Source of the DNA: an uncultured bacterium
GTDB taxonomy: Bacteria > Patescibacteriota > Minisyncoccia > Moranbacterales > GWC2-37-73
Direction of reading: 5' to 3'
Length of the DNA: 64,000 bases
Assembly (NCBI GenBank): GCA_903851135.1
Contig: CAINNK010000014.1
Span: 37,574-101,573, forward strand
Part shown: positions 12,126 through 49,999 of the stretch, piece by piece
Numbering within the stretch: position 1 is the first letter of the stretch
Layout of the letters: each line of letters opens with the position of its first letter
Program-made: the position numbers and the translations under genes
Notes under the pieces: model-generated
The model's database searches: none
Told to the model about the DNA's origin: nothing
Seen by the model: the letters and a program-made list of their open reading frames with translations, nothing else

Positions 12126-12297
12126 GACTAAAAAGTATCTTTAAATTTTTACGAGCTTGCTTGCTTTTTGGGCCTTTGAGCGACAGCTTCTCTGAGCTCT
12201 TGATTACAACTCCTAACCAAAAACATATCCTAAAAAGTAAATAAGGGAAATGAAAATTGTTAACTTAGTTTTTGAAAGTCATAAATTACGTATGACC
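12126..12297 (+). repeat. intergenic repeat family 1, copy A (~172 bp)
   Basis: Shares ordered blocks with copies at 46545-46720, 49826-49999 and (inverted, truncated) 48695-48785: TAAATTTTTACGAGCTTG, CTTTTTGGGCC, GAGCGACAG, CTCTGAG, AACAAGGGAA.TAAAAATT, ATAATTTACGYATGACCC. Confidence 0.7.
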
Positions 12298-12305
12298 CTA
12301 AAAAA

Positions 12306-12995
12306 CTATTTAACAACTTTCACTTTAACAATAAGATGATTTTTTCCTTGGACGACGCTTTGAAATTTTACTTTCTTGGCGCCCAGCAAATCAAAACCTT
12401 CACCGTCAACCAAAGTTGCAGCGTCGCGGCCGCCAATAATCAAATCTCCAATCTTCAAACGAATTTCGTCCACCAAGTCTTTTTCCAAAAGTGATGCATT
12501 TAGTTCTCCGCCGCCTTCAACTAAAATAGTTTTGATCCCTTCTTCAAAAAGAAAAAACATCATTTTTTCCAAATCGACAATTTTCTCGCCCAAGACATAA
12601 ACTTTTGCTTTTTTTCTGATTTCCTCAATTCTTCTGTCTGTGGTTTTGGCGGTCGTGAAAATCATTTTGTCACCCTCCCCTTCCGTGAAAAATTTTCCAT
12701 CCAAATCCAAACTGCCAGCATTGGAAACAACCGTAATCTTGATTGGCTCAGCACTTTTGCCAGCTCTGATTCTGTCATTTTTGCGTTTCTGTGTCTTGAG
12801 TGTCAAACTTGGATCATCTTGCCTCAATGTGTTTCCGCCAACCAAAATTGCATCCGCCTCCGCGCGCGCGTCCAAAAGCATCTCCTTGTCATTGTCAGAA
12901 GAAATGGGTATCTGCTCGCTTTTATAATTGCTAATCTTTCCATCCAGCGACATCCCCGCGCAGATGAAAACAAAAGGACGATTTTTTGATGACAT
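12306..12995 (-). CDS. RibD C-terminal domain reductase (diaminohydroxyphosphoribosylaminopyrimidine reductase / DHFR-like)
   Basis: Start taken at MSSKNRPFVFICAGMSLDGKI (avoids a 20-nt overlap with the HIT gene). Glycine-rich NADPH-binding segments GGNTL and EGGG. Confidence 0.65.
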   Translation of the reverse strand: MSSKNRPFVFICAGMSLDGKISNYKSEQIPISSDNDKEMLLDARAEADAILVGGNTLRQDDPSLTLKTQKRKNDRIRAGKSAEPIKITVVSNAGSLDLDGKFFTEGEGDKMIFTTAKTTDRRIEEIRKKAKVYVLGEKIVDLEKMMFFLFEEGIKTILVEGGGELNASLLEKDLVDEIRLKIGDLIIGGRDAATLVDGEGFDLLGAKKVKFQSVVQGKNHLIVKVKVVK

Positions 12996-13014
12996 ATTTT
13001 TTGGAAAAAATAAT

Positions 13015-13488
13015 TTATAATCCCCAATTTTCAAGACTATATTTTTCTTGTTGCAAAACTATTTTGATTTGCTTTTGAATTTCTTTTATATCTTCGTCAT
13101 TTAGGGGTTCAAAATTATCGTAAAACCCAGTTTCTCTTTGCGGAAAATAACACGCATCCCCATATTTATGAGTTTTTGCACTTTTAGCTCTCCCATATAG
13201 ATGGAGATGAAAATATGGTCCCTCGGGTTTGAAAACACTCCAATTTCCATTGTCTTGATAATTAATCCGACCAATATCAACTCCGCGATTATTCAAACCC
13301 ATGGTCATTGCTTCACCAATCAACATTGTCAAACGCATATATTCGATTGCCATTTGAGGTGAAAGCTGGGTTCGGTCAACTAAATGCTTCTTTGGCGCAA
13401 TCTTAATATGTCCACCATCCAATCTATCAACATGTGGCTTTTCAAATGCCTCAACAATAAAATTTTCTGTTTCGTAAATTTGAGTCAT
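13015..13488 (-). CDS. HIT-family (histidine triad) nucleotide hydrolase
   Basis: 157 aa; histidine triad HLHLY in PYFHLHLYGR. Confidence 0.75.
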   Translation of the reverse strand: MTQIYETENFIVEAFEKPHVDRLDGGHIKIAPKKHLVDRTQLSPQMAIEYMRLTMLIGEAMTMGLNNRGVDIGRINYQDNGNWSVFKPEGPYFHLHLYGRAKSAKTHKYGDACYFPQRETGFYDNFEPLNDEDIKEIQKQIKIVLQQEKYSLENWGL

Positions 13489-13500
13489 AATTAATTAGTC

Positions 13501-14067
13501 TTAAAAGTTTTTTGCATCTTTAATATACTTCTTTAATGTAACATAATATTCTTCCAATTCTTGCTTACAAATATCTAACGACAAGATGGCATATTTCTCA
13601 TCCATTTTTTCTTCGGCACTTTTTAGGCATTCCAAAAAGATTGGATTTCTTTTACCCAAAATTGTCAGGAATAAGAAAAAACCTTTTGGATGAATGAAGC
13701 GATAACAATCAGCATTTGCGCAAATTTCAGCTTCCAAGCATTCGAAAGGAACTTTGCCATGATGGGCTTCAACACAGTTTAAAATTTTTGTTTTTGAAAA
13801 TTCATCCAATTCAAATTTCTGCAAAAATTCTGCTGCAGCGTCCACGCTCATTTTAACATGTTCGGCAACCCTATTTTCCGAAGCAGCCTGTCCGAGTTTC
13901 AAATCCATCAGATAAACTCCGATTTGAACGATTTCTTTGTCAGCACCAAGTTTTTCAGCCAATTCAATGGCTTTTTTCTCAGAAATTTCGAAATGAACCA
14001 ATGATGGCAAGCCAAATTTTTCAATCTCAGCTAACGCATATTTTTTTGATTCTTGGATGATGTCCAT
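13501..14067 (-). CDS. HD-domain phosphohydrolase (YfbR-like 5'-nucleotidase candidate)
   Basis: 188 aa; H...HD-like residues (VAEHVK...EAHHGK), size typical of standalone HD nucleotidases. Confidence 0.55.
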   Translation of the reverse strand: MDIIQESKKYALAEIEKFGLPSLVHFEISEKKAIELAEKLGADKEIVQIGVYLMDLKLGQAASENRVAEHVKMSVDAAAEFLQKFELDEFSKTKILNCVEAHHGKVPFECLEAEICANADCYRFIHPKGFFLFLTILGKRNPIFLECLKSAEEKMDEKYAILSLDICKQELEEYYVTLKKYIKDAKNF

Positions 14068-48628: not shown

Positions 48629-48660
48629 AGCAAATTCAAACTTAAAAAGTGACTTAGAAT

Positions 48661-48785
48661 TTTTACAAGCTTGCATCCTTTTTTGAGCACGCACTTAGCC
48701 TAAGACTATGACTAAGCGCTCTGAATCGCTGTCGCTCATATGGCCAAAAAAGAATGCAAGCTTGTAAAAATGTTGCTGAAAAGAA
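48661..48785 (-). repeat. intergenic repeat family 1, copy D (inverted, truncated; bounded by 16-bp inverted repeat)
   Basis: Reverse complement ATTTTTACAAGCTTGCATTCTTTTTTGGCC.TGAGCGACAGCG..CAGAGCG matches blocks 1-4. TTTTACAAGCTTGCAT (48661-76) and ATGCAAGCTTGTAAAA (48758-73) are inverted copies. Confidence 0.55.
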
Positions 48786-48825
48786 ATCAATAATTTTCAA
48801 AACTATAAATTAAGTATAACCTTAT

Positions 48826-49770
48826 TTAGTTTATATTTTTCTTTCTCACGACATATATCGGACGACCAATAACTTCTTTGTGAATATTGGCAACATAAAG
48901 AGCCAACAATCCGATTGAGGTCAGCAGGATTCCCACTAAAAACAAAATCAAAATGGCTAGATTCTCAGAATCAGAAAAAGTTGAAGCAAATTGCGTATGA
49001 AAAAAATATTTACCCAGCAAAATGTAGAAACCCGAAATACCGGCAAAAGTGGTAATAATTATCCCGAGATAACCAGCCAACTTGAGCGGCACTAAACTCA
49101 AGGAAATGAAACTATTCATTGCTAGACCAAACAATTTCCAAAAACTATAGCTAGCCGTGCCGTGAAGTCTTTCATTGGCATCAAAATAAACATAGTCACG
49201 CTTGAAACCCAACCAATCAATGAGCGCCCTAGTCATGCGGCTTGATTCTGTAAAACGATTAAACTCCTCTACTACCACCTTATCAATAAGTCTAAAGTCA
49301 GTCGCGTTTGGAACCACTTTCACTTCGGCTATTTTATTGATAATACTATAGAACATTCTCGAGCCAATTTTTTTCAACCAAACGTCACTCTTACTTTTGT
49401 TTCTAACTCCAACTACCACCTCAGCGCCTTTTTCCCATTTGGTAATAAACTCCGCAATAAGCTCCACGGGATGCTGCATATCAGCGTCAACCATAATACA
49501 AGCATCAGCTTTACAACTATTGATTCCAGCAGTGGTAGCTACTTCTTTGCCAAAGTTTCTTGAAAAATCCAAATATTTAACAGTCTGATCAGAGCTAGCC
49601 AGTTTTTCAATTTCACCAAGTGTGTTGTCCTCGCTGCCATCGTTGACGAACAAAATTTCAAAGGCATACAAACTTGCAAAAGGCGCAAAAACCTTTTTAA
49701 GGGCATCATACACCGGCTGAATATTTTTTTCTTCATTATAAGCCGGGATGACAATAAGAATTGATTTCAT
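48826..49770 (-). CDS. GT2 polyprenol-phosphate glycosyltransferase (GtrB/ArnC/DPM1-like)
   Basis: VIPAYNEE...VNDGSEDNT...DADMQHP plus two C-terminal TM helices. Confidence 0.8.
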   Translation of the reverse strand: MKSILIVIPAYNEEKNIQPVYDALKKVFAPFASLYAFEILFVNDGSEDNTLGEIEKLASSDQTVKYLDFSRNFGKEVATTAGINSCKADACIMVDADMQHPVELIAEFITKWEKGAEVVVGVRNKSKSDVWLKKIGSRMFYSIINKIAEVKVVPNATDFRLIDKVVVEEFNRFTESSRMTRALIDWLGFKRDYVYFDANERLHGTASYSFWKLFGLAMNSFISLSLVPLKLAGYLGIIITTFAGISGFYILLGKYFFHTQFASTFSDSENLAILILFLVGILLTSIGLLALYVANIHKEVIGRPIYVVRKKNIN

Positions 49771-49825
49771 AGGGTTAAATTAAAAAATGTAAGCTTTCAT
49801 TGGATCATACTTAATTTATAGTTCT

Positions 49826-49999
49826 AGTCAAAAAGTATCTCTAAATTTTTATGAGCTTGTTTACTTTTTAGACCACTGCGAGCGACAGCGAACTGCGAGC
49901 GATTGGTTATAGTTCCTAACCAAGGGAGCGCGCCCCAAAAAGTAAACAAGGGAAGTAAAAATTGCTAACTTATTTTCCCAGAAACACAAACTGCATATG
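49826..49999 (+). repeat. intergenic repeat family 1, copy C
   Basis: See copy A. Confidence 0.7.

Follow-up and report, generated by a model that had tools for sequence, protein, structure and literature searches.

Short repeats with ISL3-type ends and a covarying hairpin core in Moranbacteria are probably miniature inverted-repeat transposable elements

Correia elements (NEMIS) of Neisseria and the ERIC (or IRU) elements of enterobacteria are imperfect palindromes of 100-200 bp with terminal repeats that are co-transcribed with the genes flanking them. Both have the potential to form long hairpins, affect neighboring transcripts in an orientation-dependent manner, occasionally carry outward-facing promoters and reportedly show compensatory base changes. 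Other families, such as RUP of Streptococcus pneumoniae with IS630-Spn1 and the Tn3-derived TIMEs (PMC4133298), are short, non-coding, multi-copy intergenic units that are polymorphic in presence or absence, share their terminal repeats with a resident insertion sequence (IS), and create target duplications of the length typical of that IS family. For the ISL3 family, a documented example is a transposon whose inverted repeat starts with GGGTC... and whose duplication is 8 bp long (PMC9782665). Here we describe repeats that were noticed as four copies (A to D) in a stretch of 64,000 nucleotides from an uncultured bacterium of the Moranbacterales (Patescibacteriota), positions 37,574 to 101,573 of contig CAINNK010000014.1, referred to below as the window.

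With a probability that we put at about 88%, these repeats are copies of a ~200-bp non-coding MITE (miniature inverted-repeat transposable element) with ISL3-type ends that has spread in Moranbacteria. Every feature of such an element that can be checked in silico was found: a short unit without coding capacity, terminal repeats, a duplication of fixed length, dispersal, filled and empty sites, and an autonomous IS with the same ends. As in RUP and the TIMEs, the units are short, multi-copy, intergenic and polymorphic, the terminal repeats are those of a resident IS, and the duplication length (8 bp here) is that of the IS family. Unlike RUP and the TIMEs, the ends are of ISL3 type, the host belongs to the Candidate Phyla Radiation (CPR, or Patescibacteria), and the interior is a conserved covarying hairpin unrelated to the IS. 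As a type of element the MITE is ordinary; it is the host that is unusual. A literature search found no description of MITEs in CPR/Patescibacteria.

All four window copies score far beyond chance with an nhmmer model built from them, and a second model, made from 45 copies of other genomes, recovers them as well (Table 1). A general repeat search of the window also returned their left and right blocks as repeat families and paired A with D in inverted orientation. The original prediction of four copies therefore holds (E 1e-33 to 1e-58), as do the co-linear blocks it listed, but its unit of ~175 bp was too short: B and C each carry a further ~25 bp on the left, matching the right end in reverse complement, which gives an element of ~200 bp. 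The termini read AGATTATAAGCAAT... and ...TTTACGCATGACCC in B, and GGATCATACTTAAT... and ...ACTGCATATGACGC in C. Copy A has lost its left terminus, abutting the terminator hairpin of the + strand gene 10530-12062, and keeps an intact right terminus (...ACGTATGACCC). Copy D had been described as inverted and truncated to 125 bp; the minus-strand matches and the alignment, in which it fits best as a reverse complement, uphold the inversion, whereas the truncation does not hold up. D occupies the whole 197-bp gap from the stop of a glycosyltransferase gene of type GT2 (48826) to the true start of asnB (48628), with a recognizable left terminus (GGTTATACTTAATTTATAG in minus-strand reading) and the core present, and only its right arm is decayed, abutting the asnB start codon. 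The perfect 16-bp inverted repeat formerly taken as a boundary of D alone is formed by its inner arms, and is the inner arm of the whole family in a more perfect state. An exact palindrome that had been reported in the first block, TGCAAGCTTGCA, is absent, with one-mismatch versions found in D only. The overlap of D with a false N-terminal extension of asnB was correctly foreseen, as the longest ORF (46739-48694; 651 aa, GTG start) runs into D and the true start is the ATG at 48628 (MCGIT; 629 aa). Metagenome annotations give asnB as 629, 645 or 651 aa, with the gene call on contig L001 at 629 aa. Beyond these four copies, the four-copy hidden Markov model found nothing else significant over the 64 kb, except for a doubtful half-copy that is possibly a decayed right half (Table 1).

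In the full-length copies the consensus runs GGGTCATACGCAATTTATGGTTCC ... GGAACCATAAATTGCGTATGACCC, its ends forming a perfect terminal inverted repeat of 24 bp, and in several copies (L013, L023, L035, L040 and L041) the repeat GGGTCATACGCAATTTATGG... and its complement have 0-1 mismatches at both ends. Element lengths are 200-202 and 180-183 bp, and there is no coding capacity, the longest ATG-initiated ORF per copy being 4-69 codons with no ORF conserved. Target-site duplications, which the original prediction had suggested seeking at the copy boundaries, are present, 8 bp long and AT-rich. Among 18 copies with both ends recognizable, 8 have perfect duplications (for example TATAAAAA, ATAAAATT, ATTTTAAC and AATTTATG) and 10 agree at 7/8 positions or better, as against 0% at this level when left and right flanks of different copies were paired. 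Filled and empty versions of the same site were found for two locations. Copy C is precisely absent from the metagenome contig L006, whose flanks are 99.8% identical to the window; the empty site there reads GCTTTCATTTACTATAT, and the filled site in the window reads GCTTTCATT-element-ATTTATTGACTATAT. A second site is empty in the window and filled in the metagenome-assembled genome (MAG) MJ110830A_bin-153 (Table 1), which is syntenic with the window at 77-84% identity. This synteny marks the organism of the window as a CPR bacterium of Moranbacteria type.

What is present or absent at these two sites is the element alone and not a gene together with its site, which speaks against integron-like attC sites, a reading that the alternating layout of genes and elements in the window (GT4, C, GT2, D, asnB, B) and the position of imperfect palindromes just behind stop codons would otherwise recommend. 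D is also opposite in orientation to B and C. The perfect 16-bp inverted repeat that bounds D just upstream of asnB might similarly be taken for an invertible promoter switch, yet no orientation variant of D was seen in six contigs from different samples, all of which are collinear over D. Given that 8-bp duplications are the signature of a transposase and that identical ends bound an ISL3-type IS, we regard action by a site-specific recombinase in either form as extremely unlikely.

Outside the window, which a protein look-up traced to a lake-metagenome population, at least 54 further copies were identified in six Moranbacteria/Patescibacteria MAGs and in lake metagenomes. An inner-arm pattern run against 185,579 species genomes hit at least 40 loci, with at least 37 of them in six Patescibacteria MAGs (one of which bears the title Candidatus Moraniibacteriota), and nhmmer placed 43 oriented copies in the genome-scan loci. 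Ten further genuine loci came from a metagenome scan with a centre-only pattern, and a scan of viral contigs with the centre pattern gave 0 matches. Three loci of the genome scan (L019, L020 and L030) and three of the metagenome scan (L058, L062 and L066) were discarded as chance matches in unrelated, partly coding DNA. Per genome, the exact-pattern scan yields lower bounds of 15 copies, spread over 14 contigs, for MAG LJ_bin-4100 and of 11 copies for MJ110830A_bin-153. The original prediction had named simple local duplication as the reading to fall back on if no copies were found elsewhere and no compensatory changes seen. Three of the four window copies do lie within 3.5 kb of each other in the glycosyltransferase/asnB cluster, but many copies exist elsewhere, on dozens of contigs in six other genomes and beside unrelated genes, and individual 8-bp duplications flank them. 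Recombination sites that shuffle the glycan locus, another of the earlier suggestions, fare no better, as the region 46400-50100 is 100% identical and collinear in five independent lake-metagenome contigs, with the sixth, L006, at 99.8% and lacking C. We give scarcely any credence to local duplication or locus shuffling.

The matching IS was found in MAG LJ_bin-4100, directly beside a MITE copy (locus L046). It has 23 of 24 terminal bases in common with the MITE, is flanked on both sides by the 8-bp duplication CAAAAAAG, and its ORFs match the Pfam family DDE_Tnp_ISL3 (PF01610; E 4e-22 and 2e-21, profile positions 1-122 and 143-240). It thus shows the catalytic domain, the 8-bp duplication and the GG-initiated terminal repeats of ISL3 elements. 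Unlike the family, it does not have a single long transposase ORF (about 400-550 aa), which is split in most of its relatives as well, and the MITE encodes nothing. The closest relatives in a protein search (90-92% identical, and intact) lie on 1443-bp ISs in metagenomes with an orfA of 137 aa, an orfB of 289 aa and GGGTCATACGCAAT at both ends. The search recovered 7327 transposase relatives at E≤1e-20, with PF01610 in all top homologues; most are split into an orfA of 137 aa with no Pfam match and an orfB of 289-328 aa with PF01610, and one, P0007, is a fused form of 427 aa. The split may be a variant architecture or may reflect a programmed frameshift at an A-run. Many of these relatives sit on contigs of ~1.4 kb, where assembly breaks at a multi-copy repeat, and their sources include Falkowbacteria and Howlettbacteria.

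Among the four options raised in the original prediction (MITEs, a structured small RNA, a terminator/insulator module and recombination sites), the terminal repeats, duplications, dispersal, empty sites and ISL3-type IS speak strongly for the first, and we infer that the MITE is mobilized in trans by an ISL3-type transposase. The ~24-bp terminal repeats would be the binding and cleavage sites of an ISL3-family DDE transposase from the same group of organisms, which, when supplied in trans, would excise or copy the element. Insertion at AT-rich targets with an 8-bp staggered cut would then create the 8-bp target-site duplications. Copies would persist only in permissive spots between genes, for the most part in one orientation and typically starting anywhere from a few nt to a few tens of nt past a stop codon. 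The ~125-nt interior does not derive from the IS; it stays paired as a long imperfect hairpin in which stems P1 and P2 lead to a three-way centre, whose 6-bp stem covaries.

Such a long imperfect hairpin is the fold of every copy in the window, with energies from -37 to -64 kcal/mol. The core of ~125 nt is made up of P1 (AATTTTTAC / GTAAAAATT), an internal loop, a P2 of 14 bp (CTTGTTTGCTTTTT / AAAAAGTAAACAAG) and a centre with three GAGCG motifs and the 6-bp hairpin TTGGCT...AGCCAA, which reads TTGGCC...GGCCAA in B and TTAGTC...GGCTAA in D. The compensatory changes that the original prediction had proposed looking for are clear in this core. In the RNAalifold structure of 45 copies it is 98% paired with 12 pairs changed on both sides, 0 of 500 shuffles reach any of five measures, and the signal collapses when the partners are slid. 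Double changes in the central stem (alignment columns 171-174/184-187) occur in 4, 4, 20 and 19 sequences, and at two of its pairs C-G and U-A are about equally frequent (21/20 and 19/19). The divergent relative L059 keeps the centre, and its 19-bp P2 is wholly replaced in sequence and still perfectly complementary. Folding of the core also favors the model + strand (40 of 45 copies), since several positions that are G-U on it become A-C on the opposite strand; the whole element shows no strand difference (23/45).

None of the copies lies inside a gene. The contexts of 58 copies were derived from a crude gene call based on ORFs. In 29 cases the genes on both sides run antisense to the model + strand, and in 3 both are sense, or 4 when D, missed by the gene caller, is included (29:4). 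Other contexts were uninformative on orientation (8 divergent and 4 convergent). Copies A, B and C follow the majority and D is the exception. The stop codon of the preceding gene is a median of 19 nt away from the right terminus, and within 8 nt of it in 6 of 21 cases, where the duplication touches the stop codon; the left terminus is ~50 nt from the start of the next gene. As the core folds better on the + strand and the genes are mostly antisense to it, mRNAs usually carry the weaker core hairpin. This orientation bias fits the purging of one harmful orientation and, equally, a mechanistic insertion bias.

Covarying hairpins and an orientation bias are also typical of single-stranded-DNA transposition, by which REP/BIME or IS200/IS605-type hairpin elements are moved by a Y1 (RAYT/TnpA) transposase. 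Such elements have neither a target duplication nor long terminal repeats, and the 8-bp duplications and 24-bp repeats found here, matching a DDE ISL3-type IS, make an origin of this kind highly improbable.

We also considered whether the repeats are first and foremost a host-functional module, either regulatory or a structured RNA (for example an mRNA processing or stabilizing hairpin, an orientation-dependent terminator/insulator or a small RNA), in which selection retains the ~125-nt core and the transposon ends are a vehicle or incidental. The covariation, the replaced P2 of L059, the + strand preference of core folding, the 29:4 bias among tandem genes and the retention of the core in several copies with decayed termini would all suit such a module. 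However, sequence inspection revealed no intrinsic terminator (hairpin plus U-tract) in either orientation and no conserved promoter in the element, with a good outward match in C only, and Rfam gave no match to the element, either on the window at the gathering score or at E≤1 on two loci that hold full-length copies. Part of the invariance of the core comes from the search patterns themselves, which demanded the arms (genome scan) or the centre (metagenome scan). The arms have been homogenized in both directions, with the left copied from the right in L069, L060 and L028 and the right from the left in L012, L039 and D; this can be explained without selection because template switching or gene conversion in quasi-palindromes at the DNA level gives the same result. 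In cross-species comparisons, conservation of orthologous copies does not consistently exceed that of their flanks, and the identity profiles are patchy (with a recombination tract around L043/L016). With no strand difference in the folding energy of the whole element, and target duplications and empty sites showing spread by transposition, we judge a host-functional module to be very unlikely.

A narrower proposal, tentative and in our view unlikely though less so than a host-functional module, is that the ~125-nt core alone is a selected, strand-specific module distributed by the ISL3-type ends, acting as an RNA hairpin that either undergoes cleavage or serves to block or insulate transcripts. 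In that case, the G-U-stabilized + strand version would be harmful in operons, explaining the 29:4 bias, and the glycan genes would have recruited copies such as C and D as 3'-end or promoter modules. Processing by RNase III or RNase E has been demonstrated for Correia and ERIC elements and is conjecture for the Moranbacteria MITE. We know of no sequence similarity between either of those families and this one, and the Correia duplication is TA.

Several observations weigh against a MITE mobilized by an ISL3-type transposase, or at least against its simplest form. No transposase gene lies within the window, the IS found in the MITE-bearing MAG is damaged by an in-frame TAG, and the intact IS copies L047 and L048 have no matching duplication. 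In blastn-short comparisons only the terminal ~23 bp of the MITE match the IS significantly, so that the core has another origin than the IS; derivation of the core from inside the IS was rejected, as a longer subterminal likeness in a MAFFT alignment was not significant. Both the covarying core and the strong orientation bias are superfluous in a plain selfish-MITE model and point to an added strand-specific constraint. Finally, the window copies carry 2-5 mismatches per 20-nt terminus and have imperfect duplications (6-7/8), which makes their current mobility doubtful. These copies are probably old and immobile, though C is still polymorphic in the population.

Table 1. Coordinates of the repeat copies, their parts and related features (window positions unless a locus is named; E values for the four-copy and 45-copy nhmmer models; a dot marks no strand)
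Feature	Position	Strand	E (four-copy / 45-copy)	Remarks
Copy A	12122-12298	+	2e-53 / 2e-41	model positions 28-209; left-truncated
Copy B	46520-46719	+	7e-58 / 7e-49	full length, 200 bp
Copy B target duplication	left 46512-46519; right 46720-46727	.		left TAAGTATT; right CGAGTATT; 6/8, or 7/8 with a 1-nt shift
Copy B inner arms	46561-46587 / 46653-46679	+		equivalent of the C arms
Copy C	49802-50003	+	2e-58 / 3e-58	full length, 202 bp
Copy C inner arms (P1 and P2 of the core hairpin)	left 49843-49869; right 49937-49963	+		left AAATTTTTATGAGCTTGTTTACTTTTT; arms pair with each other
Copy C central covarying hairpin	49903-49923	+		TTGGTTA-tagttcc-TAACCAA
Sigma-70-like promoter match	49804-49831	-		TTGACT-16-TATGAT, in the C left terminus, toward GT2 (start 49770)
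Copy D	48629-48822	-	1e-44 / 7e-33	orientation opposite to the other window copies
Copy D inner arms	48659-48683 / 48747-48771	-		equivalent of the C arms
Half-copy, possibly a decayed right half	44582-44654 (44574-44662 in the four-copy search)	+		between two + strand genes; nhmmer E 0.2 and 0.61, not significant
Empty target site	53705-53712	.		window CTTTAATT; filled in L044 (MAG MJ110830A_bin-153): CTTTAATC-element-TTTTAATT
E1	39655-39790			small intergenic element with terminal inverted repeats AGGACTTACGCG...CGCGTAAGTCCC; repeat extends to AAACAATTAGRACTTATGCG
E2	42405-42558			same kind of termini as E1
Partner IS	L046 1794-3214			1.42 kb; MAG LJ_bin-4100 (at least 15 MITE copies), directly beside a MITE copy
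Intact ISs in metagenomes	L047 2451-3893; L048 556-1998; L049; L050			terminal 14 bp shared by L047-L050

The individual window copies differ in their surroundings. Copy A lies 7 nt past the stop codon of a gene with the Pfam domain RibD_C (12306-13034, minus strand), and no presence/absence variation was seen for it among 7 metagenome contigs, all of which carry A. Copy B is located between the convergent genes 45998-46447 (+) and asnB (46739-48628, -). Copy C separates the GT4 gene (50061-51275, -) from the GT2 gene (48826-49770, -), and its flanks CTTTCATT / CATTTATT agree at 6/8 positions. The sigma-70-like sequence in its left terminus agrees with the consensus at 10/12 positions and is, as a match to consensus only, the best in 45500-51500; the family consensus at this position is weaker (TTGGCT-16-TATGAC).

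Two small intergenic elements of the window, E1 and E2 (Table 1), had been proposed as relatives of the repeats, or as partners in a chimeric origin. This proposal was not borne out: there is no nhmmer match between them at E≤10 and no alignable interior, and the termini are alike at 9/12 bases (GGGACTTACGCG vs GGGTCATACGCA). No 8-bp duplication was apparent by eye at E1 or E2, and such termini are absent from the other 68 loci. E2 lies in the intergenic gap where MJ110830A_bin-153 carries a MITE copy, which suggests a permissive gap and not homology.

Other features were noted in the same sequences. ARAGORN predicts a tRNA with a 4-base anticodon (ttgc) at 53845-53919 of the window (Rfam tRNA, 56 bits), which looks like a tRNA-Gln(UUG) with an 8-nt anticodon loop. 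At 9553-9646, a 20-nt copy of the tRNA-Lys 3' end (GGTTCGAATCCCTCTGTACC) is inverted, with a terminator-like hairpin between it and the tRNA-Lys gene that it faces (9624-9697, minus strand); integration or rearrangement at the tRNA may have left this fragment behind. A 43-nt inverted pair (18448-18490 and 57715-57757; 88%) of ACAAAT-type repeats (CCCACAAATCTACAAATCAGCTACAAATCCACAAATT) is found just upstream of minus-strand gene starts in both places, and related ACAAAAAT-rich 42-mers occur at 19504-19545 and 51240-51281 (86%) as well as in the flank of L042. A 60-nt direct repeat (23261-23320 and 24778-24837; 88%) surrounds the two-gene block 23332-24716, and degenerate tandem repeats of ~153/162 nt at 30522-31186 fall within the ORF 30360-32144 as a repeated protein domain. 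In MAG LJ_bin-4100, L035 carries an RT-7 RNA-like match at 762-917 that falls short of the gathering score (61.5 bits as against 116.8; E 2e-12), and L040 a fragment of group II intron D1-D4 at 1-99 (38.6 bits).

CPR genomes, at ~1 Mb, are usually called streamlined. With at least 15 MITE copies in one MAG and polymorphism within a lake population, transposon activity therefore shapes even these genomes. The copies are usable as strain-level markers, and the MITE accounts for artefacts in gene calling, among them the false extension at the N-terminus of asnB. Assembly breaks are accounted for as well, with the partner IS found mostly on ~1.4-kb contigs. If the conserved hairpin acts on transcripts, the element would be a mobile regulatory module in organisms that have so far been beyond genetic manipulation.

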